A stretch of 64,000 nt of DNA from assembly GCA_964475205.1 (NCBI GenBank), contig CAYYVQ010000002.1, positions 9,965-73,964 of the forward strand, written 5' to 3'. The notes beneath the pieces were generated by a model, which saw nothing but the letters and a program-made list of their open reading frames with translations, searched no databases and was not told where the DNA came from. Origin of the DNA: an uncultured Victivallales bacterium (GTDB lineage: Bacteria; Verrucomicrobiota; Kiritimatiellia; UBA8416; CAYSRM01). This document shows, one piece after another, positions 9,113 to 49,693 of the stretch. The position numbers and the translations under genes are program-made. Numbering within the stretch: position 1 is the stretch's first letter; every line of letters begins with the position of its first letter.

Positions 9113-9189
<77 letters not shown>

Positions 9190-22037: not shown

Positions 22038-25000
22038 TCAATCGCCCTGGCTTTCTGTCAGCCTCTGCTCAAGAATCGTTGTATCCTCAGAAGGCGAGAG
22101 AGGCTTTCCTGCAGGATCAACGAGTTTTGCAGTAACAAAGATCAACAGATTCCTTTTTTCGCTTCGATCATACTTGCTTCTGAAAAGACGGCCTATCACA
22201 GGAATATCGCCGAGCACGGGAACCTTGTCGTCAACGGTTTGCCTGTCCTCGGTAATCATGCCACCCATTACAACGGTGGCTCCGTTGTATATGGACAGCC
22301 GGGTCGCAACCGTTCTGGTATGGAAGAACGGCTGTTCCATATTCAAGACAACTTCGTTGCCCGCGCTGTCAATAAAGCTGCTTCCGTAGTTGCGCCACGT
22401 CGGCTCGGTAACTACCTCCGGGGTCATAGTCAGGTCAATCATCTGACCGTCGTCGCTTACTTCGGGAACGACACCGAGTATGACGCCGACCTCGCGGGTC
22501 TCAAAAGCGCTGGGTTCCACAATTCCCCCGATAATCACCTCAACATCTTCGTCGCCAGCGGTCACAGGGGTTACAGTGAAGTCCGTGGGGTAGATATATT
22601 CGGTAACAACCTTGATCTCAGCGTCATGTCCGGCCTGCGTGGTCACCTTCGGCGCGGAAAGCATGTCCGCAAAACCGCGCTGCTCCATGGCATGGAGAAT
22701 AAACTCCAATTCCGGATTGGTGAGCACACCGGCCACCCTCAACAGGCTGTCGGAAACCGACGCGTTGTCGAGCCCTTCGCGCACGAACCTGTTTCCCTGC
22801 GTAAAACCGCGTCCGCTGCCAACAGGCGTCTGGTCATTTGCCCGGACTACGATTCTCTCCTGGCTGGAAGGTAACATGCTTGATCCGCTGCCCGGGTCGG
22901 TCGCAACTTCCCAGTCATCCGTAAGCAGCCACTCGAAGCCAAGAGAACTGAGATCGCCTCTTCGAACCTCCACGAATCTTGCTTCAATCTCGATCTGGTA
23001 TGGAACCACGTTGATTACAGAGAGAATCTGTTCGAGCACGGCAAGGTTCTCGGCGGTATTGGCCACTATGAGCTTTCCAATCGACCCCACATATTTGATG
23101 GAAGAGCCCTCCGGCCAGTCAACGCCCATTTCTCTGAAACCATCTTTCCAGCCTCCTTCTTCCTCTGGCTGATCGTCAGCTCCGCCGTCAAAGCCGCCAA
23201 AACCACCCATGCCCCCGGCGTCGCGTCTTGTACCGCCGCCAACAAGCTCGCCCTTGATTCTGGCTATCTTTTGCTGCGCACTGGGAAGAACGCTGTACCA
23301 TCTGACTATAATATCGCCCCTTGGCTTATCGGAAGGAACCAGCTTGACTATGCTCTCCTCAACCTCGACCCTGAGGTCGGCGGCATCAGCAACAAGTTTC
23401 AATGACCGCCACAACGAAATGTAGCGCGCGCTGAACGTTATAAGTTCAATATCTTCGCCGGCGCCCTCTTCAGTCTCGGTATCAGGCTCCCCCCAGAGAC
23501 CGCCGCCTGCCTCCGCAGGCTCCTCTTCTTCCCTTGGGCCGCCTCGCCCTGCGCCAAGCTGCAGAATGATGTTCACTCCCTTTCGTTCGTCATCGCTCTT
23601 GTCAAATTCAATACTGGCGTCAGTCAGAAAATCGACCACGTCATAGATGTTGGCCTGCCTGAAGGTGATTTCCGGAATTTCGATGTTTTGCATCTTCTCA
23701 ATCAGTTTTGTTCTTGCAGAAACCCTCATCTCCGGCTCCGGCCGTGTGGTCGTTTCACCATCCTGGACTCCTGCCGGACTGACTTCGGCATAGTCCCTGG
23801 GGTTCCATGTCTCGACAAGACTGGCGATCATACTATCCCGGGTGGTTTCCCTTTCCATTACCGCCCTGTCTTCCCGTTCGCGCGCAACTTTTGCCAGCAA
23901 CCGAATTGACTCGGTATTGTCCGGATGGTTTCGAAGAATCTTCTCAAACTCGTATTGGGCCTTGTCATACTCTCCTGCGGCGAGGTATCGCTTGCCGACC
24001 CTTAACGACTTTTGCACATCTGCTTCCTTCTGCCGGAACTCCCTGGAATCAATATAGTCTGCTGGTCGCGACACGTCTATTTTTTGCGGTTCTTCGGCAA
24101 TAAGTCGCTTCAGTGTGCTCACAAGCCTTGCGGCCTTTTGGTGGCCAAGGTTTGCAGCCTTCTGTGCCCTGGCACGGGCTTTTTCATATTCCCTTTGCTC
24201 TCTCAGCAAAAGGGCTTCCTGGTAATAACAGTTTCTCAAGCCGTCCCGCGCCCTCTTCCGGACCCAGTCTGTTTCGGGCCGCCGCGGTATCCTTTTATCC
24301 AGGGCTGCGCTGAACAGTCTCACTGCCTTTTCAAAATTGTTCCTCTCCAGGGCAGCCTCGCCTTCAAGCATGGTTTCCCTGGCGTATTGCTCCAGCGCCA
24401 CGCGCCTGAGCTCTTCCTCTGTCATAACATTGCTGAGTTCGGGTGAAAGTTCAGGTTCTGCCCTGGAAACTTCTTCCTCTGCGGTAACCTGTTCTGCCGC
24501 TTGCACCCTGACATGTTCCTGCGCCGCCTGCCTAACCGGCGAGTCGTCTTCCTGTTCTGCTTCCTGAAGAATTTCATTCTCTATAGAGGCGGCAGCCTCG
24601 TCCACCATCCGGGCAGTCTCTGCCATCCGCTCGTCGCCAGCTTCAGTTGCAGCAGCATCCTGCATCTCGCCGGGTGTTTCGTCTTCAGCGGCTTCTTCCG
24701 AAGCCGCAGACTCTTCGGCCCCCTCTTCGGTCTCACCCAGCAAAGCTTCCAACCCCATATCTTCATCGCCGGCATCGGCCTCTTCATCGCCTTCTGTGTC
24801 GCCGGTTTCTTCATCATCGTCATCACTGTCTTCTGCTTCTGCAGGCTGGGTTTCAACGCCTTCATCGGCTGCGCCCTGATCACCGTCATCTTCATCTTCA
24901 TCTTCATCTTCTCCCTCGGCGGTTTCGTCCTGGCCTTCATCGAAACCCAGGAGGTCTTCCAGCGACGCCTCCCCACCGGCCGTTGCGCCCCCATCGTCAT

Positions 25001-25085
25001 CCTGGGCTGAAGATAGGTAGATCCCCAAAAAAAGCGTAATTGTAAGGGCGCAAAACAGCGCTGTGCCATATTTCCTTAATGTCAT
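22038..25085 (-). CDS. pilQ: secretin (PilQ/GspD family) with long acidic and TPR-like N-terminal region
   Basis: The C-terminal secretin domain is ...VATRLSIYNGATVVMGGMITEDRQTVDDKVPVLGDIPVIGRLFRSKYDRSEKRNLLIFVTAKLV. There is a signal peptide and a ~150-aa D/E-rich low-complexity tract after it. Length is 1015 aa. Confidence 0.85.
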   Translation of the reverse strand: MTLRKYGTALFCALTITLFLGIYLSSAQDDDGGATAGGEASLEDLLGFDEGQDETAEGEDEDEDEDDGDQGAADEGVETQPAEAEDSDDDDEETGDTEGDEEADAGDEDMGLEALLGETEEGAEESAASEEAAEDETPGEMQDAAATEAGDERMAETARMVDEAAASIENEILQEAEQEDDSPVRQAAQEHVRVQAAEQVTAEEEVSRAEPELSPELSNVMTEEELRRVALEQYARETMLEGEAALERNNFEKAVRLFSAALDKRIPRRPETDWVRKRARDGLRNCYYQEALLLREQREYEKARARAQKAANLGHQKAARLVSTLKRLIAEEPQKIDVSRPADYIDSREFRQKEADVQKSLRVGKRYLAAGEYDKAQYEFEKILRNHPDNTESIRLLAKVAREREDRAVMERETTRDSMIASLVETWNPRDYAEVSPAGVQDGETTTRPEPEMRVSARTKLIEKMQNIEIPEITFRQANIYDVVDFLTDASIEFDKSDDERKGVNIILQLGAGRGGPREEEEPAEAGGGLWGEPDTETEEGAGEDIELITFSARYISLWRSLKLVADAADLRVEVEESIVKLVPSDKPRGDIIVRWYSVLPSAQQKIARIKGELVGGGTRRDAGGMGGFGGFDGGADDQPEEEGGWKDGFREMGVDWPEGSSIKYVGSIGKLIVANTAENLAVLEQILSVINVVPYQIEIEARFVEVRRGDLSSLGFEWLLTDDWEVATDPGSGSSMLPSSQERIVVRANDQTPVGSGRGFTQGNRFVREGLDNASVSDSLLRVAGVLTNPELEFILHAMEQRGFADMLSAPKVTTQAGHDAEIKVVTEYIYPTDFTVTPVTAGDEDVEVIIGGIVEPSAFETREVGVILGVVPEVSDDGQMIDLTMTPEVVTEPTWRNYGSSFIDSAGNEVVLNMEQPFFHTRTVATRLSIYNGATVVMGGMITEDRQTVDDKVPVLGDIPVIGRLFRSKYDRSEKRNLLIFVTAKLVDPAGKPLSPSEDTTILEQRLTESQGD

Positions 25086-25196
25086 TTTATTTGTCCCCCA
25101 GAATTTGGAATTCCAATATCCACAATACTACATGTTCCGTTTAATCTGAACCAGCAAAGCCAATCCCTCATGCTTGCGGGTCCGGTTGCGCATCCC

Positions 25197-26264
25197 TCAG
25201 CGGGCAGCCATTCCGACTTTGATTCTATCCCCGGTTGGAAGCTTGGTAATTAAAACTTTTTTCTCGTCCGTGTCAATATCTATTACTTTATATTCTATTC
25301 CCTTGAGTGCAAACTGGTCGCCTTCCTTGACACGAAACTCTTTGTCTTCCCGGTGAAAGTTCAAAATCGCCGAATATTTTCTGAATATCCGTTCCCGATC
25401 CTTAACGAGTGTCACATCTTCACCATTTTTCGATAGTGTAATCTCGGAGACATCCTTTTTAACCTCCTGGCCAAGGGACTTTTTGAAAACCATATTGGTC
25501 TTGGCCTTATAGTCCGACACAACAAAAACCTCTTCCTCGCCGCCAAATCTGACTGTGATCTTATCGCCAAGTTTGACAAAGTAGGTCTGATCCAAAGTCG
25601 CTGAATTAATCCCAAACTGGAGCGAACCGTCCGGCATACGTGCCCTGCTGAAGAACTCAAGAGGAAACCTTTCGGCATCAAACCTGACAAGCCGCAAATC
25701 CTTTTCAGGCGGAGGAAAATCTTCCGGATCATTCGGATCCGTCCCTGCCTCGAACTCCTCGAGATTGCTGTAGCCGTCTCCGTCAGCGTCGGCCGCAGCA
25801 TCCGAAGGATCATTGGGATCCAGACCATGCTCCCGTTCCCACTCATCTTTCATGCCGTCCTTGTCCCAGTCTTTGCGTTCACCCTTTGGTTTGGGCTGCA
25901 CATGGCCACAGAAATCGCACACCCGGGCGTCAAACGGGATCGGCATCCTGCAGTCCACGCACCAGACACGCCGCTCGGGAACAGTAAGCGCATTTGTCCA
26001 TGCCTCATAATTCAAAGTGTCGGGCTGCTCCAGCATATTGACCGCCGCGCGATAAGGCCCGACATCAATCTTTGAAGCATACTCATGAGTGGGTCTGAGC
26101 GTTTCAAGCTCCCTCTCCAGTCTCTGTCGCATGGACTTGGCGCCGCCCACAAGCATTACCAGATACAGAAGAGAGCCAAGAAGCAGAACTAAAATCAGTC
26201 CCGCGATAAGGCGGTCGTAATGAGTCCTGACCCCTCGAATAATTCTAGACGTATTAAGCTTCAA
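25197..26264 (-). CDS. membrane-anchored protein with zinc-ribbon and TSP3-like Ca-binding motif (occupies PilP position)
   Basis: An N-terminal TM helix is followed by CVDCRMP...CDFCGH (C4 zinc ribbon) and DADGDGYSNLEEFEAGTDPNDPED. Translational overlap with neighbours on both sides indicates operon membership. Confidence 0.5.
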   Translation of the reverse strand: MKLNTSRIIRGVRTHYDRLIAGLILVLLLGSLLYLVMLVGGAKSMRQRLERELETLRPTHEYASKIDVGPYRAAVNMLEQPDTLNYEAWTNALTVPERRVWCVDCRMPIPFDARVCDFCGHVQPKPKGERKDWDKDGMKDEWEREHGLDPNDPSDAAADADGDGYSNLEEFEAGTDPNDPEDFPPPEKDLRLVRFDAERFPLEFFSRARMPDGSLQFGINSATLDQTYFVKLGDKITVRFGGEEEVFVVSDYKAKTNMVFKKSLGQEVKKDVSEITLSKNGEDVTLVKDRERIFRKYSAILNFHREDKEFRVKEGDQFALKGIEYKVIDIDTDEKKVLITKLPTGDRIKVGMAAR

Positions 26265-27171
26265 TATCTGTTACCTCTGCAAATTTATAGACATCCAGTT
26301 CCAGGCGGATGCTCATTGATTTTTCGAGTTGCAGACCGCTGACCAGCCTGTCCTCCCTCAAGGGCGGCTCGCCCTTGTCTTCGCCGGCATTCTTGCCCGC
26401 CGCTGCGATCTCCGCTGGATGTTTAACATCGCCTTTCTGCTTTTCCACGGAAAGGAAAACGACAACAGCAAAAAGATCATGGTCAGTTAGAGCATTGAGA
26501 GTCTTAAGCAATTCTTCCTCTTTCGCCTCAAAAGACAAAACAAAACGATATTTGCCGTAAAGACTGCCTTCCGGCACAAGTCCAGCGTCCGGGTTCCTCA
26601 GCTTAGCTGCACCGCGCCCGCGTGATCTACCTCTTCCCGCGCCTGCTGATTCAAATACTTCCCTTTCTATCTTGCCGACAGTTTTGACGCCGGCCCGGCT
26701 CAAAATCGAGGCAAGCTGCTCAATAATGGCAAGCTGTTCGGTCAATCGGGGGACCTCTGCGGGACGCGGCGTCCTCATATCTTCGGCAAGATACCTCTCA
26801 AATCCGATTGAGATGCTCTTGTTGCGTGAGAACATATCCACGATCTCTTGGTGTTTGTTCTGCAGATTCAGAATAAACACAGACGGACTTCTTTCATCGC
26901 CGGTTTCAATCTGCCGTTCCCGCAACGCAGCAAAAGTTCTTTCAAACCATTCCCTGGCGACAACAACATTCTCGCGCTCAATTTCCACATTTTCCGAAGA
27001 TGGAAAAGGTTTCTTCTCATAGTAGTTGTGAAGCTGTGTCTTCTTATTATTGACCCGGGCTTCTTCTCTCCTGAATTCGGTTATGCCGCGAAAAAGCAGA
27101 ATGGCCGAAACAATAAATAGAACCGCAAGCACGGCTGCTATAGCGAGAAAAAATATTTTCTTCCGGGTCAT
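26254..27171 (-). CDS. PilO-like bitopic membrane protein (TM + coiled coil)
   Basis: The N-terminal TM is FLAIAAVLAVLFIVSAILLF, followed by a coiled-coil region. Its operon position is between the pilM/N fusion and the secretin. The assignment is by architecture only. Confidence 0.45.
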   Translation of the reverse strand: MTRKKIFFLAIAAVLAVLFIVSAILLFRGITEFRREEARVNNKKTQLHNYYEKKPFPSSENVEIERENVVVAREWFERTFAALRERQIETGDERSPSVFILNLQNKHQEIVDMFSRNKSISIGFERYLAEDMRTPRPAEVPRLTEQLAIIEQLASILSRAGVKTVGKIEREVFESAGAGRGRSRGRGAAKLRNPDAGLVPEGSLYGKYRFVLSFEAKEEELLKTLNALTDHDLFAVVVFLSVEKQKGDVKHPAEIAAAGKNAGEDKGEPPLREDRLVSGLQLEKSMSIRLELDVYKFAEVTDIEA

Positions 27172-27181
27172 ATCTGGTTTC

Positions 27182-28834
27182 TCACCTTATCTGTATGCGC
27201 TCGGCAAGCTCCGCTTCAAGAGTAAATTCCTTGACTCCCGGCACTTTTGCAAGCGGCATCTTTGTAATACGTACATTGTCGCTGAAAACTTCGTGCGTTT
27301 TCAGTTGATCCCTGTAGATTTCCATGGCAGGCACCCCCGAGCCTTCGGAAACCAGTTCAATCATATCCTGAAAACCGGCGGCTTCGATCGTAATGCCTGT
27401 TATCTCTTTATTATTGCCTGTTGTCACAGGGGCAATCCTGCGAATCCACATTCCCTTGAATATTGAGTCCTGAACGGCCGCAATTATATCGAGCCACCGG
27501 GTCTTCTCCGAAATCAAGGAGGTTAAATTCCCTATCTCGCCTTCAATCTGACTTCGCTCTTCCAGTACCCTGTTCAGTTTTTCATGCGTTTCTTCCAGGC
27601 CTCCGATCTTGTTGTCTACAGTTTCGGCCAGCTTTGTCAGCATCTTCTGTGTCTCATGAAAGTATACCCACCAGCAGAGCATGATCAGAACAACTCCCAC
27701 CGCGGAAAGAATAAAAAACGGCTGCCGTCTCCTCATGGTCTTTTTTGCGACGAGTTCGGGAGGCATCAGGTTGATTTCAACAGGGCAGCTCAGAGCCCCG
27801 CGAAGAGCAAGTCCCGTGACTTCGCCCAGCACATGCATGTCGCCCTGCACCCTTTCAGAAGATAACGCTTCATTTACCGCAACCCTCTCAAACGGGTTGA
27901 TAAAAGCCACTTCAGCGTCCAGCTTCTCCCTGAAAAACGTCTCCAGGTGCGGAATAATCGAACTGCCGCCGGCAAGCAAAACCAGGTCCGGGGTCGAACC
28001 CCGCTGCTGGCTGCGGTAGAAGTTAATCGATCTGTTCACCTCGGCATGCAGACGGGTAACAACATTTCTTACAATTTTTGATACCTTTTCGCCAACTTCA
28101 TTGTCCGGTCCGGAATAAACGCCTCCAAAAGCAACAAAGCCGTGTTCCATTTTCAGATCTTCGGCTTCCGAATAGGAAACTTCAAATTCCTTCTCAATTT
28201 CACGAGTAAGCGTATTTCCCGCCACGGGAATGCTCCTGCTGAAAATACGGCTGCCTTCTAAAAAAATCAGGTTGGAAGATTTTGCCCCTATATCAAGAAG
28301 CATTGTGCAGCCCTGCAAGTCGGGGTTGTTGTAGCGAACCGCGTTATAAAGCGCCATGGGAGCCACATCAACTACTTCCGGCTCCATGCCGATTGCAACA
28401 AGGCTGTCTGTTATCTTCCTGACGCCTTCATTTTTGACGGCGACCAGCATAACGTTCTGTTCGCCTTCTTCGCCCTCGATAAGCTGATAGTCCCAGACGA
28501 CCTCTTCTATAGGGAAAGGCACGTTCTGTTCGGCCTCGTAGCGCACAATCTGCAGAACTTTATCGCTGGAAACGGGGGGCAGCTTGACAAAGCGAGGAAA
28601 AACCGCCTGCCCGGATATACTTATGAAGGTTCTGCCCTCACGTATACCCTGCTCCTTCATCACCCTTCTAAGGGTCTTCCTGATATGCGTAGCGGCGTCT
28701 TCCGTCTCAGAAACTTCAGCCTCGTAATACCCGATCCCGTAGTTCAGCAGTTCCGGCCCATCCGGGTCAAACGCTGCAACTACAAGTTTGCTGGCGCCGA
28801 TATCAACGGCAATGATGTTTTTCTTTCCGAACAT
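27182..28834 (-). CDS. pilM: type IV pilus assembly protein PilM (actin-like ATPase fold) fused to a PilN-like TM/coiled-coil domain
   Basis: The N-terminus IIAVDIGASKLVVAAF is followed by MLLDIGAKSSNLIFLE and LAGGSSIIPHLETF, the actin/FtsA/PilM fold. After ~aa 360 there is a single TM (FFILSAVGVVLIMLCWWVYF) plus coiled coil, as in PilN. The start is placed at MFGKK. The ORF-track start at 28870 is also possible. Confidence 0.75.
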   Translation of the reverse strand: MFGKKNIIAVDIGASKLVVAAFDPDGPELLNYGIGYYEAEVSETEDAATHIRKTLRRVMKEQGIREGRTFISISGQAVFPRFVKLPPVSSDKVLQIVRYEAEQNVPFPIEEVVWDYQLIEGEEGEQNVMLVAVKNEGVRKITDSLVAIGMEPEVVDVAPMALYNAVRYNNPDLQGCTMLLDIGAKSSNLIFLEGSRIFSRSIPVAGNTLTREIEKEFEVSYSEAEDLKMEHGFVAFGGVYSGPDNEVGEKVSKIVRNVVTRLHAEVNRSINFYRSQQRGSTPDLVLLAGGSSIIPHLETFFREKLDAEVAFINPFERVAVNEALSSERVQGDMHVLGEVTGLALRGALSCPVEINLMPPELVAKKTMRRRQPFFILSAVGVVLIMLCWWVYFHETQKMLTKLAETVDNKIGGLEETHEKLNRVLEERSQIEGEIGNLTSLISEKTRWLDIIAAVQDSIFKGMWIRRIAPVTTGNNKEITGITIEAAGFQDMIELVSEGSGVPAMEIYRDQLKTHEVFSDNVRITKMPLAKVPGVKEFTLEAELAERIQIR

Positions 28835-28876
28835 ATCCTGACACAACAGCCGAGACGGCAAACGCCGCACAGCAAC

Positions 28877-29518
28877 CTATTTCCTGATGTATTCGTAATC
28901 CTGCATGTTAATGTATTTGAATGGCGAACTGGCCCTGTCCATCAGATACCCGTCTCTTTCAGTCACTACATCGCTGTTCAGAACCCTTTTGTTCTCCCAC
29001 CAGTCCTCCGGAAGATCCCTGTCCTGTCTATCTGAGACATAAGCAATAAGGGTTCCCTCGAATCTTATTTCAACGGCAATGGCAACCAGTTGACCAAACC
29101 GCAACAGCGCATGCGGCCTGAGATATGCCGTGCTTATGTGTTCGCGCCCCTCCTGGATATCGCCATACGTGACATTTTCTTTATAAAGACTGTAAGCGGG
29201 CCGTCCGTCAACCTCGCCCCTGCTCATTGCGTAATACTGAAAAGTAAGCGAATCAATCCATTCGGGAGCCGTGTCGTAGGTCGTCTTGATCTCAACCCAT
29301 TCACGGGGACGTTTAACGCTGCGTCGCACATCGGCATCATAGCGCGGGGTTTCTATTAAAGCCCTGCGGCTCAAACCTTCCAGCGCCCTTATCTTCAGTA
29401 TCCCCGGATTATCACCGGTTTCCGCGCCCGGATAAACAGGCCTGCCCTGTCCAAAAGACCTGAACGTTAAGCCCGAAAAAAAAGCCAGAACAGTCAATAT
29501 GTATAGGATACGTTTCAT
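28877..29518 (-). CDS. secreted hypothetical protein
   Basis: A signal peptide MKRILYILTVLAFFSGLTFRSFGQG is present and no recognisable domain. It sits upstream in the same strand run as pilM. Confidence 0.5.
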   Translation of the reverse strand: MKRILYILTVLAFFSGLTFRSFGQGRPVYPGAETGDNPGILKIRALEGLSRRALIETPRYDADVRRSVKRPREWVEIKTTYDTAPEWIDSLTFQYYAMSRGEVDGRPAYSLYKENVTYGDIQEGREHISTAYLRPHALLRFGQLVAIAVEIRFEGTLIAYVSDRQDRDLPEDWWENKRVLNSDVVTERDGYLMDRASSPFKYINMQDYEYIRK

Positions 29519-29640: not shown

Positions 29641-30450
29641 TCACCAGTTGCCTGAGCATGCATCCGTTGTTTCGTCCCATGTGATCTGTTCAACATGGCC
29701 GTCCATAAAAACCGCATTTGCCTTGCCGTTGTGATACGTGCCCACGGACTCCACGGGATATTCCCCGTCGCTGCTTTTCTGTCCTACCAGGCGACCGTCA
29801 TAAGACCTTCTATGTCTATCGCCCGAGTCATATTCCATAATATTCCGCTTAGCTATAGTGTTGCCCTTGTAAATATTGGTTATTCCCGCATCGGCAAACA
29901 GCAGTCTCCTGCTTGCCTGCACATCCCTTATATCTTTCCCGCCGGCATCCTGGCTCATAACATAACTTCTGACAATGGGATTATTGTCATTGATCGGGTT
30001 CCCCTCCGCATCTTTAAACACAACCCTTTTAAATTCAGGACACACATATACTTTGAGACTCTCGCCCGTATATTCCCACAGGGTTCCATTGGTAACAGAA
30101 AACACACCTTTTTCTCCCCACCACTTGGCCCCATCGTGCCTGATCTCGCTGCTGCTGTTACTTTTGTCAAAATCCGTCCAGTCTACCCAACCCCACGCAT
30201 CCTGATACCAATTGCGGGGTTTGACGCTTTTGGGTGGTCTTTTCCCAACGCTTTTTGACGGCGGCAGGTTGCCGCTATGGTCAAACGCATAGTTCATGGC
30301 AGCAACGTGGAGCTGTTTAAGATTGTTTTTGCACTGAATATCTCTGGCTCTAATGCGCATTTTGCCCAGCACTGGAAAAATCATGCCGACAAGAACGCCC
30401 AGTATAATCATGACGATAAGGAGCTCCAGCAGCGTGAAGCCCTTCTTCAT
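29641..30450 (-). CDS. DUF1559-type prepilin-like protein (N-terminal cleavage/methylation domain)
   Basis: KGFTLLELLIVMIILGVLVGMIFP is a class III signal plus hydrophobic helix. The C-terminus HNGKANAVFMDGHV is the H-x9-DG motif typical of DUF1559. The start is taken at MKKGF. Confidence 0.75.
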   Translation of the reverse strand: MKKGFTLLELLIVMIILGVLVGMIFPVLGKMRIRARDIQCKNNLKQLHVAAMNYAFDHSGNLPPSKSVGKRPPKSVKPRNWYQDAWGWVDWTDFDKSNSSSEIRHDGAKWWGEKGVFSVTNGTLWEYTGESLKVYVCPEFKRVVFKDAEGNPINDNNPIVRSYVMSQDAGGKDIRDVQASRRLLFADAGITNIYKGNTIAKRNIMEYDSGDRHRRSYDGRLVGQKSSDGEYPVESVGTYHNGKANAVFMDGHVEQITWDETTDACSGNW

Positions 30451-30661
30451 TCCAGGCTTCCCCTGCCCCGATCCGTTAAAACGTATGAATTTCATCCACC
30501 GCCTCCCTTTGAGAAAACCTTATCGCAATCCCGCAGAAGTGTCACAACAGGCTGCGCGCAAATCATTAATCTGCGTCTAATACATCTATACTTATAACAT
30601 CCCGCAGAATAATAGACAACTAAAAACTGTTCAATCCCCGAACCCTTATCCCGATCTTCAT

Positions 30662-33127: not shown

Positions 33128-33150
33128 AAGAATCACAGCAAAGAAAAAAA

Positions 33151-33179
33151 GGCGGCGCAAATTGCGCCGCCTTTTTTTA
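33151..33179 (+). terminator. rho-independent terminator
   Basis: The hairpin ggcggcgcaaattgcgccgcc is followed by ttttttt. It is preceded by an A-tract, so it is potentially bidirectional. Confidence 0.8.
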
Positions 33180-41718: not shown

Positions 41719-43887
41719 CTACTCTCTGAGCACATCAAAATACCTGAGGAAATATCGATGCTTGCCCCCGGCATCAGGCCATGGATCGCGCCATACAACC
41801 GCAACTGCCCGGGCCCTGGCGCGCACACTTCCGTAATGACCTTCTCGCAGCCCGCCCACAGGTTCGGCATAAGAATCAGCGGCAAGTATTATGGTAAAGA
41901 TATTCTGACGTGTAGTCAGCAGCTCCACAGAATTCCTGATCGGAGCTTCTCTGTCAATTTCGTCTCCGCTTACCGAGTCGCCCCAATCTAAACGGCCAAG
42001 TTCAGACACATTTGTGTACGGGCCATTGCTCCAGATTTCATTCGCAATTTCTTCTGCGACCCCCTGATCAATCTGTCGGTCAGGCAGTGGAAATACGGGA
42101 TCGTACTCCTTAAGCGGAACATACGTGAAAACCGCCGCAAGCGCGTTAGTATTGAAAGAGTTAATGTTGACCAGGCCTTTTTGAAAGCCTTTTTCCCTCG
42201 TTGTGAACCAGTCAAGCACGTGGTCGTAATCCGACCATTCGGCATGCTTGTATAACCCAATGGTATGCCATGGCCTGTCAAGGCATATATATCCCAGTTC
42301 ACCAACGGTCTGCAGGTTCGTGTTCGCAATATGCAACGCAGTGTCACCATCAGCCTTCGGGTCATAAGCCGCCTCGTCGGAATCAAAAACCGCTAAGGTA
42401 ACGGTATTGTCTTTACCTATTGTCGGCTTATCCACGCCATAAAACATCTTAATGGTCTTACCCGGAATCCAACTTGCAACATTGTCCGCGCTACCGTTAA
42501 AGCGCGGATCCACACACTCAAACCAGTTGGTTATTGTGAAATGATCTCCAGCGGAAACTTCTCTATCCACTTCAAAAACAAAACCCGCACTCCCTGAAAA
42601 GTCCGGATATGGCACCTGGTCAACAAGGTTTGATGAAGAAGTACTCTCTTTTAACCTTATTTTCAGTTCCGCGGTAAAATTCAGATCAAAATCGTTTGTG
42701 TCCACGTTTCCATTCTTGTCTTCCCCGTAAATATCCCTTCTATTGTATTGTTCGCTGGCGCCAAACGTCTCGGCGCCGCTCATGTCGTCAGGAATCAATT
42801 CGTCATGCGTATTGGCGTCTTTTTTTTCAAAACTCAATTCATACTCAAGACTATACGACTCCCCCGAGAATTCCCTGAAAGGATACATACACTCAAGTTG
42901 CATAACGGGCTCAAACCCGTGTGGCATTGAATATTGCCCGTTGGTTTCTACATGTAGCGTATAGCAGAAAACCACTTCATTGAGCATTGGAGCCATGTCA
43001 ACGTGTCCATCGGCAAGATTAGTAGGAACCAGATCTTCATCTATGTAGTCAAGTAAATTTGAATACGCAAGGCCCGCGTCATAGTCAGCCCTCATGGTAC
43101 ATTCCTCAAAGGCGCTGAGTATATCCTCCTCCGACCATTCGCTCCTGTTTGTGCCTATATAAACCTGAGAACGAAGATTCGTCCCATTGTGCAGAAACTC
43201 GCCGACCGGACTCAGCGAAAACGTGAATAAATCCTTAACGTTGGTGGCGCTAAGAAAACCTTCGGCATCGCCAAAGGCGGTAAGCTCTCTGAAAGTCTCG
43301 AACGGGTAGTTGTCACGCTCGTTAAGCAGGGCAGCAGCATCCCTCACCCCGTCAATTCCGTCAATCTGTATTTCCGCCGGAGACACCCCCCTTAGCCTGT
43401 CGAGGCCTCCAGCATGGTTGATGTCGATCCATCCTGAACAATCCGCGGCCACAAAAGAGTAGCGTCCCACAATAGTCCCTTCAGAATTTTCAATTGTGTG
43501 CCAGTAGGCCGGCGTCGACATGACATTATCCGCAAGATCGTCCGGCAGAAACTCAAGGGCTTTTCTGGTCAGCAGCCTGGCCCTAGTGTCTTCGTTCGTA
43601 AAGACGCCCTCTCCGCGCGATCCAAGAACTGCATCAGGCGGAAATATTTTAAAAGAATTAGACGTCACCATCTGCCCGTTAATGTCTTCCATTGCGCGCC
43701 CAAGCGCGGCAAACAACATGTGCCTGGATTGCATCGAGTTCCTGAAGCTCGCGGCGCCCTGCCGTTCGACCCGCATTGAGATCGAGAACGCCATAGCCGC
43801 GATCATCAATACCGCAAGCAGCCCCAGCACCATGATTATGGCTACTCCACGTCTGTCATTAATCCAGATTGTTCTTTCTTTTTCCAT
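41719..43887 (-). CDS. gspK: GspK-like minor pseudopilin, unusually large (~720 aa)
   Basis: The N-terminus RRGVAIIMVLGLLAVLMIAAMAFS is the GspK-type uncleaved hydrophobic leader. It is the last gene of the pseudopilin operon. The start is taken at MEKERTIW. Confidence 0.6.
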   Translation of the reverse strand: MEKERTIWINDRRGVAIIMVLGLLAVLMIAAMAFSISMRVERQGAASFRNSMQSRHMLFAALGRAMEDINGQMVTSNSFKIFPPDAVLGSRGEGVFTNEDTRARLLTRKALEFLPDDLADNVMSTPAYWHTIENSEGTIVGRYSFVAADCSGWIDINHAGGLDRLRGVSPAEIQIDGIDGVRDAAALLNERDNYPFETFRELTAFGDAEGFLSATNVKDLFTFSLSPVGEFLHNGTNLRSQVYIGTNRSEWSEEDILSAFEECTMRADYDAGLAYSNLLDYIDEDLVPTNLADGHVDMAPMLNEVVFCYTLHVETNGQYSMPHGFEPVMQLECMYPFREFSGESYSLEYELSFEKKDANTHDELIPDDMSGAETFGASEQYNRRDIYGEDKNGNVDTNDFDLNFTAELKIRLKESTSSSNLVDQVPYPDFSGSAGFVFEVDREVSAGDHFTITNWFECVDPRFNGSADNVASWIPGKTIKMFYGVDKPTIGKDNTVTLAVFDSDEAAYDPKADGDTALHIANTNLQTVGELGYICLDRPWHTIGLYKHAEWSDYDHVLDWFTTREKGFQKGLVNINSFNTNALAAVFTYVPLKEYDPVFPLPDRQIDQGVAEEIANEIWSNGPYTNVSELGRLDWGDSVSGDEIDREAPIRNSVELLTTRQNIFTIILAADSYAEPVGGLREGHYGSVRARARAVAVVWRDPWPDAGGKHRYFLRYFDVLRE

Positions 43888-44169
43888 CTCATTTACGTCT
43901 TTCAAAACGTTTCTCGAGCCGATCCAATCAGCCCGCCTCGCCTTTCCACACAAACTGATGTGTTTCCTGCTATATCTCCGTCATCCGTGTCAATTAGCGT
44001 CTATTAGCGGTTCCTCTTTCCAGGGCGGCAGCAGGTTGACACAACCTGCTGTACTCCAACGTACAGCGGGTTATCACGTAACCTGCTGCCCAACCATAAC
44101 CCGCGTTACCCAGCATATAACCCATACCCCGACGTCCAACTTGTCACAACGCAGGCCCGCCAAAGCGCA

Positions 44170-44652
44170 TCAGTCATATTTGTACCGGTTCCTGTTAGGA
44201 AACCAGACAGTCGTCTCAAAATATTCAGGCTCCGGCGCATCCGGCGCATCCGGCTCGGCAAATCTAACCCGATAAACATTTCCCCAGGGATCCTTGTAGC
44301 CGTCTTCCCATTTCGGTGTGTCAATATCAAGAAATTTCAGTTCCCTTGGATTCTCCGATGTGTCATCCCCCTGCAGGATAGCCATTCTCTGCTCGGTCAT
44401 GGCATAATACTGGTCTCCGGAAACAAAAGAAGGCCACTTTTCGTAAGTAATCCGATACGCTTTCCAGGCCTTCGCCAACTCTCGAACTTCCGATTTGGCG
44501 CTGTCTATGTGCGCCCTCTGCCTGGCGGATCTGGCGGCAACAAACATAAGGCCGGATAATATCATGATAATCGCCAGCACCGCCAGCATCTCAAGCAGCG
44601 TAAAGCCATGTCGCCGGGTTTCTGTGCCGGCAAAATCCGGATCTGAATACAT
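44170..44652 (-). CDS. GspG-family pseudopilin paralogue
   Basis: HGFTLLEMLAVLAIIMILSGL is the prepilin motif and DPWGNVYRV is GspG-type. The start is taken at MYSDPDFAG. Confidence 0.65.
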   Translation of the reverse strand: MYSDPDFAGTETRRHGFTLLEMLAVLAIIMILSGLMFVAARSARQRAHIDSAKSEVRELAKAWKAYRITYEKWPSFVSGDQYYAMTEQRMAILQGDDTSENPRELKFLDIDTPKWEDGYKDPWGNVYRVRFAEPDAPDAPEPEYFETTVWFPNRNRYKYD

Positions 44653-44656
44653 ATTT

Positions 44657-45229
44657 TTACCATGACCTGATGTCATCATCTTCTCCATCGTCGTCCTCGC
44701 CGTCCGGCCCATACGAAAGAACCCCGAGCCCTGAAATCGTGTCTTCACGCTCAAGTTCAAGGCGCACATTCAGATATTCCGGCAGTGCATCGGAAGCGCC
44801 ATCGCTTCTTATGAACTTCAAGGCCCTTATGCCTTCAACAAGCGTCGAGTGGCCAGAACCGGGCAAATTCATAGTCACCGTATCACCGCTCTGTTCAATG
44901 CTTACCACCTGCGCGGCCCTGTTGCTTCCCTCCATATCCAGAACCACAAACTCTACTGAACTGCCGTTATCCGGAATGGATGTCTCACCATGCCCCTCAT
45001 AACCGTCAGGCGGATTTACCGCCCTCGACATCCACGTGGAAATGATGCCGAGCGCGGCACGGGCGGCCATGGCAGACTCCGATTTCCTGCTTCCCGCGTC
45101 CCAGGCAATCGTGGACTGGTGAAAAACAGCGCTGATAATCATAACGATAAGCACAAGGATTACAGTTGCGCTCATCACTTCGATAAGCGTGAAACCGCTC
45201 TTTTGTCTGTCCGGCATTGCAATTTTCAC
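44657..45229 (-). CDS. gspJ: GspJ-like minor pseudopilin
   Basis: SGFTLIEVMSATVILVLIVMIISAVF is the prepilin motif. The position after the gspI-like gene fits, and the C-terminus is acidic. Confidence 0.55.
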   Translation of the reverse strand: MKIAMPDRQKSGFTLIEVMSATVILVLIVMIISAVFHQSTIAWDAGSRKSESAMAARAALGIISTWMSRAVNPPDGYEGHGETSIPDNGSSVEFVVLDMEGSNRAAQVVSIEQSGDTVTMNLPGSGHSTLVEGIRALKFIRSDGASDALPEYLNVRLELEREDTISGLGVLSYGPDGEDDDGEDDDIRSW

Positions 45230-45244
45230 AAATGGTTCTCCACG

Positions 45245-45727
45245 TCACATTCCCACGAAGGTCATCTCCGTCAAATACTCCTCCACAGCTTCTTCAAAGT
45301 CGCCAAGCTGCCCCCTCGCCACACGGACCCGGCACTGCTTTCTGCTCTCGTCTTCAGTGGAACTGATGGTTATCTCGTACCTGATCCAGTTATCTGCGGC
45401 GTCCTCGGGAAAATTCACCCCTCCTCCGACTGCGGTGTTAGTCCAACCCTCGGTTTCAAGGGGATAAAGGTCTTTGTCCAGCATTGCTTTAAACCCAGCG
45501 CTGTCAACCCAGTCGCTCCAGTTACTGACCGTCGACGCTTTGCCCTGGAATGAATTGAGTATATGATCGGCGAACATAGCCTCGTAAGTGTCGGAAACAT
45601 TCTGTTTTGATTCCTGCAGTCCCAGGGGAAAAAGAGACATAAGCCCGAACAGGCCTACCGCCAGAAGCAGAATGGCAAGATTCACTTCTATTAAACTAAA
45701 CGCGGATTTTTGCAAACCTGATTTCAT
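45245..45727 (-). CDS. gspI: GspI-like minor pseudopilin
   Basis: KSAFSLIEVNLAILLLAVGLFGLMSLF is the prepilin motif. The protein is short and sits between the H-like and J-like genes. The start is taken at MKSGLQ. Confidence 0.5.
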   Translation of the reverse strand: MKSGLQKSAFSLIEVNLAILLLAVGLFGLMSLFPLGLQESKQNVSDTYEAMFADHILNSFQGKASTVSNWSDWVDSAGFKAMLDKDLYPLETEGWTNTAVGGGVNFPEDAADNWIRYEITISSTEDESRKQCRVRVARGQLGDFEEAVEEYLTEMTFVGM

Positions 45728-45746
45728 TTGTCTATTGCCGTCCATT

Positions 45747-46430
45747 TTACGGATCCATAACGATTTTCGCGAACCCCTGAGCATCTACTTCAACCTCGAA
45801 CAGATCTATCTCGGAAGCCCCGCGGGTATCTTTAACAACAACACTGCCGCGCGTAGCCGTGCCGTCGCTATAAAACTCAAAACGATCATTATCCGGTGTC
45901 TCAGACCACTGAAGACCTTCCGGCAACCTGTTGACCGGTCTGACTTCCCACCCGTACTCGTTGTGGCTGCCGCTCCATATATTGTCGCTTGTTTCCATTA
46001 CTATCTCGAAATTATCGTTTGTGTAGGTTCTCGTTACGATAGTAGACTCGCCGTTCTCCAGGTTATAAATCTTTGCAGTCTGTCCGGAGTTAAGCTCCAG
46101 GCTGCCGAACCTGTCACTGAGCCCTCCGGCCTCGGCCTTTCCGACGCCCTCACTCGAACATGTAACATAAAAACATGTATTTGATTCCTCTTTCAACAAA
46201 ACCACTGTTTTACGTCCTTCAAGCATGGCGGCCTGCCGCGCAAAACGCAGGGTCGACCGCAGGTGATGGGCAGAGCTGCTCCCACGGATTCCTTTTGTCA
46301 AACTGAAATACGATGCCATGCCGATCCCCGCCATAATGATAACTATGCCCATTACGGTCAGCAGCTCGATTAAAGTAAATCCGCTGCCCGCCTTTATCGG
46401 CCTGCATGAATCAACTTGAAACTTCATCAA
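45747..46430 (-). CDS. gspH: GspH/FimT-like minor pseudopilin
   Basis: GSGFTLIELLTVMGIVIIMAGIG...LRFARQAAMLEGR is the prepilin motif plus the GspH-type Arg/Ala helix. Confidence 0.55.
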   Translation of the reverse strand: MMKFQVDSCRPIKAGSGFTLIELLTVMGIVIIMAGIGMASYFSLTKGIRGSSSAHHLRSTLRFARQAAMLEGRKTVVLLKEESNTCFYVTCSSEGVGKAEAGGLSDRFGSLELNSGQTAKIYNLENGESTIVTRTYTNDNFEIVMETSDNIWSGSHNEYGWEVRPVNRLPEGLQWSETPDNDRFEFYSDGTATRGSVVVKDTRGASEIDLFEVEVDAQGFAKIVMDP

Positions 46431-46915
46431 TAAGTCTGGCCTTTTTCAACAGTGGAGTTTGTGACAGTAACACTGTCATTTTCGCAGTTTATGATTATGG
46501 TGTACGCATCGCCCCATGGATCGACAATAGCGTCGTCTTCAAGCCTGTATTCGTCCCAGTTAACAAAACGCACCTTCCGCGGATTATAACCACCGCTATC
46601 CGATGACAGGTCGTCAATGATCTCCTTATGCCCTGTATCGCCGTCATTTGTATGCACACCCGTGAATTGATCCGTTTGCAGCCCGGGCCACCTGTCATAT
46701 TCATGGCGATAGTTATATATTGCCAGAGCAAGCGTATGCACGTCTGCCTGGGCTTTACGGCGTTGCGCGGCTCTGCGCGATCTGCTGAAAGCAACCGTCA
46801 GCAAACCGAACAGCATGCCGATGATAACAACAACCATCAACAACTCGATCAGCGTAAAGCCCTTTCGAGCCGACCGCGATTCGGGATTTATCATGCCTGT
46901 ACAACCGGTTTTCAT
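46427..46915 (-). CDS. gspG: GspG-family major pseudopilin
   Basis: KGFTLIELLMVVVIIGMLFGL...LALAIYNYRHEYDRWPG...DPWGDAY are the GspG hallmarks. Confidence 0.7.
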   Translation of the reverse strand: MKTGCTGMINPESRSARKGFTLIELLMVVVIIGMLFGLLTVAFSRSRRAAQRRKAQADVHTLALAIYNYRHEYDRWPGLQTDQFTGVHTNDGDTGHKEIIDDLSSDSGGYNPRKVRFVNWDEYRLEDDAIVDPWGDAYTIIINCENDSVTVTNSTVEKGQTY

Positions 46916-47437
46916 CTATTTATCCCAGCTCTTTATGTCGTCCCCTGTGTTTTCAGTCCGGTCAGGGCCCTTTGACCATATTGCAACATACTTATCCACG
47001 TCCCCGTGCGGAGCGCTTACCTCTCCATCAAGATCCGTATCAAGCCTTATTGACAAGAGTTCGCCCCACGGATCGCGCAGTCCTGATGTAGCGGAGTTTG
47101 TTCCCTGCTCCTCGATAGTGAAATCCACATATTCCTCTATGTATCCAATCGCATTGGTGTCCATCTCGGTTAATGTTTCAGAGGGAAACTCCTGGTTCTC
47201 CGTCAGGTAATAATTCCACGCTGTATCAAGCTGGCTTATCATCTGCCTGCACGCCACTTTTTTGCCCTGCTCAGGCGTTTTGCGGATCGCGCCAAGCAAC
47301 AGCCCGGCCAGGGTGGCGATAATTGCGATAACAACAAGAAGCTCTATCAGCGTAAAACCAAACCCTTTCAAGGGAGCAGTCCTCCGCCTTTCTTCCAGTC
47401 CTTTTTTTTCACGCATAAAAATATTGTCCTTGAACAC
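46916..47437 (-). CDS. GspG-family pseudopilin paralogue
   Basis: GFGFTLIELLVVIAIIATLAGLL and DPWGELL are present. Confidence 0.65.
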   Translation of the reverse strand: MFKDNIFMREKKGLEERRRTAPLKGFGFTLIELLVVIAIIATLAGLLLGAIRKTPEQGKKVACRQMISQLDTAWNYYLTENQEFPSETLTEMDTNAIGYIEEYVDFTIEEQGTNSATSGLRDPWGELLSIRLDTDLDGEVSAPHGDVDKYVAIWSKGPDRTENTGDDIKSWDK

Positions 47438-48160: not shown

Positions 48161-48206
48161 GTAAATATTACCACTTATTCACTTTTGTGAAAAGGGAAAA
48201 CACTCA

Positions 48207-48400: not shown

Positions 48401-48409
48401 TGGAAAACA

Positions 48410-49693
48410 CTACCCCGCCATTGTGCTTACAACGTGAATCAGCGGAACAAACATGGCTATCACAATCGTGCCGACTATTCCAGCCAGCAGCACAATCATT
48501 ATTGGCTCAATAATTGATGTCAGCCCCTCAACGGCAGTGTCAACTTCATCTTCGTAGGTATCGGCAATTTTCAACAGCATTTCCGGCAAAGCGCCTGTTT
48601 CCTCGCCTACATCCACCATGCTGATGACCATCCCGGGGAAAACCCTGGAATGCTCCAGCGGTGTGGACATGTCTTCGCCTTCCTTGACATTGTCATGAAC
48701 AGCCTGTATTGCATCTGACAGTACCCGGTTGCCCGAAGTGTCTCTCACAATGTTCAGCGCCTGCAGGACAGGAACTCCGGAGGTCATCAACGTCCCCAGT
48801 GTGCGCGAAAATCGAGCCACCGCGCTTTTGGTGAAAAGCTGCCCGAACAGGGGCATTTTAAGCTTTATCTTGTCCACAATAAAACGTCCCCTGTCCGTAC
48901 GCGCAAGTATCTTGTATAAAAAGATAAAACCAACTATAAACCCTAGAAACACGTACCACTGCCGCGCAATAAAGTTGCTGATGGCAATTACAACCTCAGT
49001 CAGAATAGGCAGTCCCTCGTCACCCAGCAGATCATTGAATATTTCCTTGAACCTTGGGATGACATAAATCATAAGAAATGTCAGAATGCCTACAGCGGCA
49101 ACAAGAACCACTACGGGGTAAATCATTGCGCTCTTGATCTTGTTCTTGATCCTCTCAGCCTTTTCCATGAATTCGGCAAGCCTGTTAAGCACAACTTCAA
49201 GAACACCGCCGGCTTCTCCGGCCCTGACCATGTTGATAAACAGGTTGTCAAAAATCCTGGGATGCTGCTCCAGCGCCTCGGAAAAAGTGCTGCCGCCTTC
49301 AACCGACTCGCCCATTTCAGTCAGGGCCTTCCTCAAGGCGGAATTCTTTTCCTGCTTGAGAAGAATTCTAATTCCCCTTAACAACGGCAGTCCCGCATCA
49401 ACCAGGGTTGCCAGTTGCCGGGTAAAAATCATAAGCTGCTTGGCCTTCACCCTGGGACCAAGAAAACCCGGCAACTTGATCTCCATCTTCAGGCCTTGCC
49501 CCTGCTGCGCCGCAGCCTGACTCCCTCGACCGGAAGCAGCCTGTTTTCTTCTGCCCCCGATTTCACTTACCTTTGTCGGAAACAACCCCTTCGCGCGGAT
49601 CATGGCCACCGCCTGCGACTGATTATCCGCCTCAAGAACACCCTCGGTCTCATTGCCGCCCGAGTCCATTGCAAAAAACTTGAATCTAGCCAT
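48410..49693 (-). CDS. gspF: type II secretion / type IV pilus platform protein GspF/PilC family
   Basis: The N-terminus FKFFAMDSGGNETEGVLEADNQSQAVAMIRAKGLFP is followed by two T2SSF repeats with three TM segments. Length is 427 aa. Confidence 0.85.
   Translation of the reverse strand: MARFKFFAMDSGGNETEGVLEADNQSQAVAMIRAKGLFPTKVSEIGGRRKQAASGRGSQAAAQQGQGLKMEIKLPGFLGPRVKAKQLMIFTRQLATLVDAGLPLLRGIRILLKQEKNSALRKALTEMGESVEGGSTFSEALEQHPRIFDNLFINMVRAGEAGGVLEVVLNRLAEFMEKAERIKNKIKSAMIYPVVVLVAAVGILTFLMIYVIPRFKEIFNDLLGDEGLPILTEVVIAISNFIARQWYVFLGFIVGFIFLYKILARTDRGRFIVDKIKLKMPLFGQLFTKSAVARFSRTLGTLMTSGVPVLQALNIVRDTSGNRVLSDAIQAVHDNVKEGEDMSTPLEHSRVFPGMVISMVDVGEETGALPEMLLKIADTYEDEVDTAVEGLTSIIEPIMIVLLAGIVGTIVIAMFVPLIHVVSTMAG

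Follow-up and report, generated by a model that had tools for sequence, protein, structure and literature searches.

A MUL2-like secretin block contiguous with a gspF–pseudopilin operon and two large putative client genes in an uncultured Victivallales bacterium

A 64-kb stretch of DNA from an uncultured Victivallales bacterium (contig CAYYVQ010000002.1, positions 9,965 to 73,964; referred to below as the window) contains, within about 28 kb (22038–49693), a block of five genes related to the Akkermansia muciniphila genes Amuc_1102 to Amuc_1098, a second operon for the platform protein GspF, seven prepilins and a GspK-like protein, and, between the two operons, the genes for two large proteins of 648 and 2756 amino acids (aa). 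The profile matches described below identify the five-gene block as a homologue of the Amuc cluster, viz. the MUL2 "pilus-like system". The arrangement is beyond chance: the five genes are colinear in all 80 related loci that were compared, and the gene for the giant 2756-aa protein is paired with that for the GspK-like protein in five of six assessable contigs. The explanation that we prefer, although we hold it with slightly less than even confidence, is that the whole interval encodes a single type IV filament machine of the type found in the Planctomycetes-Verrucomicrobia-Chlamydiae (PVC) group, which would be chromosomal and vertically inherited, together with the proteins that it secretes or displays as clients.

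The gene content of the interval, as determined from a listing of open reading frames (ORFs) and from profile searches, is summarized in Table 1. The first operon, which reads from 30495 to 22038 on the minus strand, consists of the genes for a DUF1559 prepilin, a 213-aa protein, a PilM-N fusion, a 305-aa protein, a 355-aa protein and a secretin with tetratricopeptide repeats (TPR). The second operon (49693 to 41719) has the same orientation and comprises gspF, the seven prepilin genes and the GspK-like gene, the prepilin and GspK-like genes being in the order G, G, G, H, I, J, G, K. The 648-aa and 2756-aa genes are located between them on the plus strand, where they converge on the pseudopilin operon and point away from the DUF1559 gene. 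Every gene class named in an earlier, sequence-only reading of this DNA was recovered where that reading had placed it (ORF listing; Pfam and NCBIfam hidden Markov model (HMM) searches). In the second operon, three and not four GspG-like genes precede the GspH-like gene. Its statement that the two operons are convergent was mistaken, since both are on the minus strand; convergence with the pseudopilin operon is limited to the two large genes.

Table 1. Features identified in the interval 22038–49693 of the window and the matches or motifs on which their naming is based
Feature	Position	Strand	Characteristics
TPR-secretin, 1015 aa, Amuc_1098 family, outer membrane	22038..25085	-	Pfam Secretin E 1.7e-35, residues 799-990; TPR_14
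355-aa membrane-anchored protein, Amuc_1099 family, PilP/GspC position	25197..26264	-	Amuc_1099_fam 91.9 bits (cut-off 50)
305-aa protein, Amuc_1100 family, PilO/GspM position	26254..27171	-	Amuc_1100_fam E 1.9e-18, 67 bits (cut-off 180)
PilM-N fusion, Amuc_1101/MUL2B family	27182..28834	-	PilM_2 E 4.7e-40; Amuc_1101_fam 485.6 bits (cut-off 650)
213-aa signal-peptide protein, Amuc_1102/MUL2A family	28877..29518	-	Amuc_1102_rel E 3.7e-10, 39.7 bits (cut-off 55)
DUF1559 / H-X9-DG prepilin-like protein	29641..30495	-	N_methyl E 5.1e-7; SBP_bac_10 (DUF1559) E 6.6e-12
648-aa Sec-signal protein	31181..33127	+	Signal peptide read from sequence; N-domain, three internal repeats, C-terminal module
Bidirectional terminator-like hairpin	33144..33178	.	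Perfect 16-bp stem with 8 GC pairs; A7 and T7 flanks
2756-aa Sec-signal giant protein	33376..41646	+	Conserved core of ~2160 aa, InlB-B-like repeats, C-terminal module in common with 648-aa protein
722-aa GspK-fold minor pseudopilin with inserted beta-sandwich domains, presumed tip subunit	41719..43887	-	GspK fold, no Glu5
GspG-like pseudopilin (199-aa ORF)	44170..44769	-	N_methyl E 3.7e-7; TIGR01710 E 1.6e-10, under cut-off; DPWGNVY motif
GspJ-position minor pseudopilin	44657..45229	-	N_methyl E 2.4e-4; G|FTLIE motif
GspI/PilV-position minor pseudopilin	45245..45784	-	TIGR02523 PilV E 1.7e-6, under cut-off; A|FSLIE motif
GspH-position minor pseudopilin	45747..46430	-	Pfam GspH 17.7 bits (cut-off 21); TIGR01708 GspH E 4.3e-7
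GspG-like pseudopilin	46427..46915	-	N_methyl E 3.4e-7; TIGR01710 E 2.8e-13, under cut-off; DPWGDAY motif
GspG-like pseudopilin	46916..47437	-	N_methyl E 7.7e-6; TIGR01710 E 3.1e-9; DPWGELL motif
Long GspG-like pseudopilin, 240 aa	47438..48160	-	N_methyl E 4.5e-7; TIGR01710 E 1e-9; degenerate DGWD motif
GspF/PilC inner-membrane platform protein	48410..49693	-	T2SSF E 1.1e-68, two domains

The NCBIfam models for Amuc_1098 to Amuc_1102 are the best matches for all five proteins of the block (E 3.7e-10 to 2.7e-145). A genome scan anchored on the PilM fusion yielded 80 species-level related loci, the closest of them in an uncultured Victivallales metagenome-assembled genome (MAG) with 96% identity, and the proteins of the window were compared with these loci by tblastn. 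The common order is 213-aa, PilM-N, 305-aa, 355-aa and secretin, and wherever a locus could be assessed for a gene its orthologue was present (213-aa, 78/78; 305-aa, 69/69; 355-aa, 62/62; secretin, 57/57), with the exonuclease gene, coaE, rho and tig usually following downstream. The pilM/pilN fusion, the PilO-like protein (a member of the Amuc_1100 family), the zinc-ribbon protein, the secretin and the upstream DUF1559 gene of the sequence-only reading are all present; the conserved 213-aa gene was passed over in it. Its implication that the secretin operon is novel does not hold, as the block corresponds to a known system for which NCBI has curated models and on which an experimental literature exists.

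The individual proteins of the block are related to the Akkermansia cluster to different degrees. The secretin scores 433 bits against Amuc_1098_fam (E 2e-129, cut-off 750) vs. 149 bits against GspD (TIGR02517, cut-off 351) and 124 bits against PilQ, and the same combination of TPR and secretin domains has been described for Amuc_1098. A stretch of ~190 aa of acidic low complexity (D/E/G/A) is present near its N-terminus, ahead of the TPR region (residues ~28-215; 24440-25000). The ORFs found at the orthologous position in other loci range from ~800 to 1403 aa, some of them being cut by contig ends, and because of this variation in length the acidic N-terminal part appears to be hypervariable. 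The 355-aa protein contains a TSP3 repeat (TSP3_bac, E 5.3e-9), a C-terminal domain and a CxxC-x10-CxxC zinc ribbon (residues 101-118) whose four cysteines are invariant in 35 orthologues. This motif follows the single N-terminal transmembrane helix and is therefore apparently periplasmic, an unusual location for such a motif. For the 305-aa protein, a family profile built from 36 orthologues matches the Amuc_1100 structures in the PDB (6KNY, 6LAD, 6LAF; E 4e-7) over nearly the full length, and for the 213-aa protein a profile of 35 orthologues matches that of Amuc_1102 (7DSZ, E 1e-16).

The PilM-N protein consists of a PilM domain with the actin-like ATPase fold, a transmembrane helix (residues 381-405, read from sequence) and a periplasmic tail of ~160 aa, a topology that resembles that of GspL. 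It passes the pilM model TIGR01175 (165.3 bits, cut-off 133). Apart from its match to GspL at E 0.033, the Pfam and NCBIfam searches gave no match to GspC, GspL or GspM. More than 3700 full-length homologues of ~550 aa occur in MAGs whose labels are Kiritimatiellae, Lentisphaerae, Victivallales or Verrucomicrobiota. The ORF extends from 27182 to 28870 (562 aa), and the true start is likely Met13 (28834), the database copies having 550 aa. No Pfam or NCBIfam match to the PilN, PilO or PilP families was obtained among the proteins of the block, in which the N-position is fused to PilM. The DUF1559 prepilin encoded upstream carries the motif G|FTLLE and also matches the H-X9-DG model TIGR04294 (E 7.5e-6).

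The second operon encodes proteins of types for which the MUL2-like block has no genes of its own. The product of gspF scores 412.9 bits against the GspF model TIGR02120, slightly under its cut-off of 424, with PilC models scoring about equally. All seven prepilins carry the motif [GAS]F[TS]L[IL]E, and for the four GspG-like proteins the best match is the GspG model TIGR01710, at 37-50 bits vs. a cut-off of 88.85. The GspG signature DPWGxxY is present in three of these (173, 162 and ~150 aa) and degenerate in the fourth (240 aa), and the C-terminal cysteine pair of type IVa pilins is absent from all of the GspG-like candidates. The 199-aa ORF overlaps its neighbor by 113 nt and has orthologues of 139-151 aa; its true start is probably ~120 nt downstream of the ORF start, giving a product of ~150 aa. 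The H, I and J assignments are based on gene order and on weak matches limited to the N-terminus, as for the GspJ-position protein with GspJ (PRK08808) and Verru_Chthon protein C.

The last protein of the operon starts with G|VAIIM, lacks Glu5 and has the pilin fold with an inserted alpha-domain that is the trait of GspK, and it is presumed to be the tip subunit of the H-I-J-K set. The ORF (41719-43953) encodes 744 aa, of which Met23 (43887) is probably the start, giving 722 aa as in the database copies. Its family comprises 1303 representative clusters (E <= 1e-3), and the members among the 150 listed are mostly 700-760 aa in length and align over the full length. Sequence profiles of this family did not reach GspK in searches of the PDB and Pfam, and single-sequence phmmer searches of the PDB with the 744-aa and the 305-aa proteins gave no match; the relationships of both emerged only from family profiles and a structure model. 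However, 32 of 40 members of the GspK-like family weakly match the NCBIfam model T2SS_GspK. The match to Verru_Chthon protein A is 22 bits (cut-off 332), and the proteins form a separate family of their own of ~720 aa.

The two large proteins, both with signal peptides, share a C-terminal module of ~110 aa (residues 523-631 vs. 2625-2732; 38% identity; BLASTP E 1e-15), as the sequence-only reading had noted. The module consists of a TSP3-type stretch followed by a small beta-sandwich, and the TSP3 stretch is also present in the Amuc_1099-like protein. A role of the module as a widespread sorting tag could not be established: a profile search gave only 34 short fragments, and the orthologous giant proteins of other genomes are without it. 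The core of the giant protein contains seven copies, detected with a module HMM, of a CBM/discoidin-like module of ~140 aa (CBM, carbohydrate-binding module). The profile of this module weakly matches the CBM4 structure 1GUI (E 0.0014) as well as CBM32 and GH98 and glucanase CBMs, and 4 of 20 module copies weakly match the discoidin-type domain F5_F8_type_C_2. The InlB-B-like repeats are seen as a Flg_new_2 match (E 9.4e-10). A profile of the core from five giant orthologues found no relative in the PDB, and the lamin-tail domain for which a check had been proposed earlier was not found in the giant even at E 1 on separate segments.

The N-terminal domain of the 648-aa protein (~270 aa) is possibly ConA/LamG-like: three of 19 members give weak Laminin_G_3 matches (best E 0.0011), and the jelly-roll glucuronan lyase 2ZZJ is matched at E 0.022. 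A full-length search found only four close relatives, and the AlphaFold2 model is consequently poor (pLDDT 50); it is confident only for residues 520-648, which form the beta-sandwich part, and the N-domain could not be modelled. A metagenome scan with this domain returned one short contig. Taken together, the profile matches weakly suggest that both large proteins may be carbohydrate binders. A hairpin (Table 1) begins 17 nt past the stop codon of the 648-aa gene, between the two large genes. It resembles a bidirectional intrinsic terminator, and the large genes may therefore be transcribed separately or by attenuated read-through.

Evidence that the large proteins are connected with the machine is provided by the linkage of their genes in distant relatives. 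Relatives of the 648-aa protein, identified with an HMM of its N-domain, are present in 22 of the 80 MUL2-like loci, always divergent from the gene for the 213-aa protein or from a preceding DUF1559 gene. Members of this family are usually 400-530 aa in length elsewhere, and in seven loci they are followed by a giant with 4-7 copies of the ~140-aa module. In L029 (250-8977), downstream of a 648-aa-like gene and co-directional with it, are a 281-aa ORF, five genes for prepilins and a GspK-like gene of 845 aa, the whole set being divergent from the MUL2-like block; the order is rearranged, yet all of the parts are together. The GspK-like protein was the second anchor, and homologues with only 33-38% identity to it led to other contigs. 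In L084, L086, L087/L088, L090 and L091 the GspK-like gene is immediately followed by a convergent gene for an orthologue of the 2756-aa protein, the contig L085 ending too early for its presence to be judged. The giant orthologues are 2084-2350 aa in length and 32-38% identical, the fuller alignments extending from residue ~18-202 to ~2160. The orthology always ends near residue 2160, and the InlB-B-like repeats and the shared module are therefore lineage-specific additions. Upstream surroundings in L086 and L087 are unlike those in the window, and L090 starts inside the pseudopilin operon. Because synteny is conserved from two independent anchors, the giant and 648-aa proteins are conserved partners of the machinery; the dedicated link that the sequence-only reading had proposed is thus supported.

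The two operons are themselves connected in a few genomes. Loci L015, L038 and L040 read rpsK, rpsD, rpoA, gspF, 213-aa and PilM-N, with gspF directly heading the MUL2-like operon on the same strand. The window retains both ends of this order, and the pseudopilin genes, the large genes and the DUF1559 gene are inserted between them. In L085 and L089 the order is rpoA, rplQ, gspF, seven prepilin genes and the GspK-like gene, and L086 and L087 have the same nine-gene operon from gspF to the GspK-like gene in unrelated contexts. No secretin or PilM gene is present within 10 kb of this operon in L085, L086, L087 or L089. The gene sets are thus complementary, and for this reason we infer one machine, which is short of proof.

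In the mechanism that we consider, the TPR-secretin, the Amuc_1099-like and Amuc_1100-like proteins, the PilM-N fusion and the Amuc_1102-like protein would form a MUL2-type scaffold spanning the envelope. The second operon would supply the parts that this scaffold lacks, viz. the GspF/PilC platform, four GspG-type pseudopilins and the H-I-J-K tip set, and the ATPase and the prepilin peptidase would be encoded elsewhere. The 2756-aa and 648-aa proteins, Sec-exported and with CBM- or lectin-like modules, would be its dedicated clients, and a short pseudopilus would deliver them to or through the secretin in the manner of a type II secretion system (T2SS), and they may help to capture polysaccharides at the cell surface. 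The analysis demonstrates the homologies, the folds and the conservation of gene linkage, whereas the union of both operons in one machine, the passage of the large proteins through it and their binding of glycans are inferences. Features that point to a T2SS are the GspK fold, the resemblance of the subunits to GspG and the GspL-like topology of the PilM fusion; the PilM match, the operon order and the reports on Akkermansia point to a type IV pilus.

A number of observations weigh against the view that the interval encodes a single secretion machine with its clients. Most of the 80 MUL2-like loci are without gspF or pseudopilin genes within 10 kb, so that linkage of the operons is exceptional, and in one contig (L089) the gspF-pseudopilin-GspK operon is complete but no giant gene follows it. 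The shared C-terminal module is missing from giant orthologues elsewhere and is therefore not a general recognition signal, and the carbohydrate-binding assignments are marginal (E 0.001-0.02). Four of the five Amuc-family scores are under the NCBI equivalog cut-offs, Amuc_1099_fam alone passing, and the genes of the block are therefore distant homologues and not equivalogs. A protein of 300 kDa is also unusually large for a T2SS substrate. Lastly, the Akkermansia literature favors a pilus for attachment or uptake over secretion.

This last point leads to the explanation that we regard as the next most probable, although clearly less so than the single secretion machine, viz. that the locus encodes a true surface fibre, with the large lectin-like proteins riding on or docking to the GspK-like tip as adhesins, capturing polysaccharide and helping to bring it to or through the secretin, as has been proposed for the Akkermansia MUL2 system. 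Consistent with such a capture pilus, the PilM protein passes the type IV pilus model, the giant gene is tied specifically to the gene for the tip subunit, and the extra beta-sandwich domains of the GspK-like protein could be docking sites. Pili-like structures and a highly abundant secretin have been reported for the Akkermansia homologue, and it is reported that mucin products need the MUL genes for pili and periplasmic complexes in order to accumulate inside the cell and that marine Akkermansiaceae take up labelled fucoidan. However, the candidates for the major subunit are GspG-like, with DPWG and without the C-terminal disulfide pair, and are not type IVa pilins, and no PilT-like retraction ATPase is encoded in the window, which is the only part of the genome that this observation covers. 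The giant gene is also on the opposite strand, unlike PilY1, which is encoded within the minor-pilin operon.

That the interval contains two separate machines side by side, the MUL2-like block building a structure based on the Amuc_1102-like protein and the gspF-pseudopilin-GspK operon with the giant using another secretin and alignment complex, we consider unlikely. The rarity of operon linkage noted above and the unrelated contexts of the pseudopilin operon in L086, L087 and L089 would be expected under this explanation, and Amuc_1102 has been described as pilin-like in structure and modelled as a homotrimer. Two genomes also carry a gspF paralogue (36-40% identity) with a gene for a GspE-like ATPase (GPTGSGKT, ~580 aa) at L010:198-3101 and L057:358-3273, and these relatives therefore possess more than one type IV filament system. 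Against two machines, none of the loci examined has a module that is complete by itself, and gspF heads the MUL2-like operon in three loci. In addition, the 648-aa family links both sides, being divergent from the 213-aa gene in 22 loci and accompanying prepilin and GspK-like genes in L029, and the TSP3 stretch is common to the Amuc_1099-like protein and both large proteins. The least probable explanation, which we likewise consider unlikely, is that the large proteins are ordinary surface or secreted glycan binders in a position due merely to inherited gene order; the absence of the giant from L089 and of the 648-aa family from about two thirds of MUL2-like loci, the strong terminator between the two large genes and the lack of any domain tying them biochemically to pilins agree with it, but the giant/GspK-like adjacency persists at 32-38% identity with upstream contexts in L086 and L087 unlike that of the window, the rearranged L029 still has the 648-aa family beside pseudopilin genes, and linkage at such divergence is unlikely without selection.

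The vertical inheritance which forms part of the single-machine view is in agreement with the setting of the locus. The interval had been termed an island in the sequence-only reading, and a horizontally acquired island is ruled out because the GC content equals that of the rest of the window (0.48-0.55), the flanking genes are housekeeping genes, the synteny of the MUL2-like block is universal, and the same block with its coaE-rho neighbors is reported even in Akkermansiaceae. The genes on the left flank are those for a 5'-3' exonuclease, coaE, rho, tig, clpP and clpX, and on the right flank rplQ, rpoA, rpsD, rpsK, map, adk and secY. No GspE-, PilB-, PilT- or PilD-like ORF (ATPases and prepilin peptidase) is present among the ORFs of the whole window, and the genomes closest to it are MAGs that carry the labels Victivallales, Kiritimatiellae, Lentisphaerae or Verrucomicrobiota; the earlier suggestions that the ATPase and PilT are not adjacent and that the machinery is split, with a PVC affiliation, are therefore upheld.

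Several other features of these loci were observed. A GspE-like ATPase gene almost never adjoins them; the exceptions are L010 and L057, the only two genomes in which the gspF-ATPase pair was seen, 6-8 kb upstream of the MUL2-like block. In L086 a gene for a sigma-54 activator (3291-5549), with no equivalent in the window, separates gspF from the pseudopilin genes and is oriented opposite to them, which hints at sigma-54 control of the pseudopilin operon in that genome. The position of gspF directly after rpoA-rplQ, at the end of the ribosomal-protein cluster, is found in the window (49693-51540) and in L015, L038, L040, L085 and L089, and the tail of this cluster is an unusual fixed address for the platform gene of a secretion system or pilus. 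The only Rfam matches in the window are a tRNA-Met (CAT) and a tRNA-Arg (ACG) on the minus strand (9113-9341).

The significance of this locus is related to the fact that the Akkermansia MUL2/Amuc_1100 cluster is medically prominent while its mechanism is unclear. The literature that could be reached defines MUL2 by four or five genes and names neither filament subunits nor a platform protein or clients for it. The window contains a distant MUL2 homologue with candidates for these missing parts, viz. the subunits, the platform and the clients, side by side. The contiguity of platform, pseudopilin and tip genes and the pairing of GspK-like and giant genes were not found in the searchable literature, to which access was limited. 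It is predicted that a GspK-fold tip protein of ~720 aa and a giant of >2000 aa, possibly rich in CBM-like modules, are a conserved pair accompanying such machines. If this is true, it would provide concrete candidate genes in Akkermansia and in marine polysaccharide degraders and would help to decide between secretion, adhesion and import. A more far-reaching proposal, which we put forward as improbable, is that the MUL2-type machine is a GspG/GspK-type pseudopilus whose oversized tip handles a dedicated giant protein (>2000 aa) with many CBM-like modules, and that this pair is the missing glycan-capture part of the "selfish" polysaccharide and mucin uptake attributed to MUL2, a T2SS-like machine being used in acquisition rather than, or besides, export. 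The main value of the locus lies in the testable candidates that it offers for components and clients still missing from MUL2-type machines.

Comparison with known systems reveals partial likeness to several of them. The Verru_Chthon cassette is likewise a PVC pseudopilin cassette ending in a very large GspK-like "protein A", and the H-, I-, J- and K-position genes of the window weakly match its D, B, C and A models in the corresponding order. Membership in this group (TIGR02596, TIGR02598, TIGR02599 and TIGR02600) was nevertheless rejected, the scores being 20-26 bits vs. cut-offs of 51-332 and confined to the N-terminal helix. With type IVa pili the locus shares a PilM that passes TIGR01175, the order of PilM, (N), O-position, P-position and secretin, a PilC-like platform, a minor-pilin set positionally homologous to FimU-PilVWX, and a large protein, not itself a pilin, that has a genetic tie to the minor pilins. 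It differs from them in the fusion of PilN to PilM, in having no type IVa major pilin and no PilB, PilT or PilD in the window, and in that its large partner has no match to PilY1 and is encoded convergently, outside the operon.

Canonical T2SSs may likewise have a dedicated substrate encoded adjacently, as with pulA beside pulC-O in Klebsiella and sslE/yghJ beside gspC-M in E. coli. The likeness of the locus to these systems includes the secretin, a GspF-type platform, GspG-type major pseudopilins with DPWG, an H-I-J-K tip set in which K has the GspK fold and no Glu5, and an adjacent large Sec-exported protein that may be glycan-related. In contrast to them, it has no recognizable GspC, GspL or GspM, in place of which it has the PilM-transmembrane fusion and the Amuc_1100-like and Amuc_1099-like proteins; GspE and GspO are not encoded at the locus in the window; four GspG paralogues are present; the secretin bears TPRs; the K subunit exceeds the usual size more than twofold; and all Gsp equivalog scores are under their cut-offs.

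The closest resemblance is to the MUL2 locus of A. muciniphila, for which the published reports describe a role in mucin utilization, conservation in Akkermansiaceae, and genes for a secretion system channel protein, dephospho-CoA kinase and rho as neighbors in that family. The same five genes are present in the window, in the same order and on a single strand, with a PilM-like MUL2B, a fusion of TPR and secretin domains, structure-profile matches to Amuc_1100 and Amuc_1102, and dephospho-CoA kinase and rho downstream. The differences are that the host is not labelled Akkermansiaceae, that four of the five scores fall short of the equivalog level, that the 5'-3' exonuclease gene sits between the secretin gene and coaE, and that the block here forms one continuous stretch with gspF and with genes for seven pseudopilins, for a GspK-fold protein, for a DUF1559 prepilin and for two large CBM- or lectin-like proteins, all of them absent from MUL2 as the literature that could be reached describes it. 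The core of the secretin block is thus a distant member of a known system, in a locus that is unusually complete.

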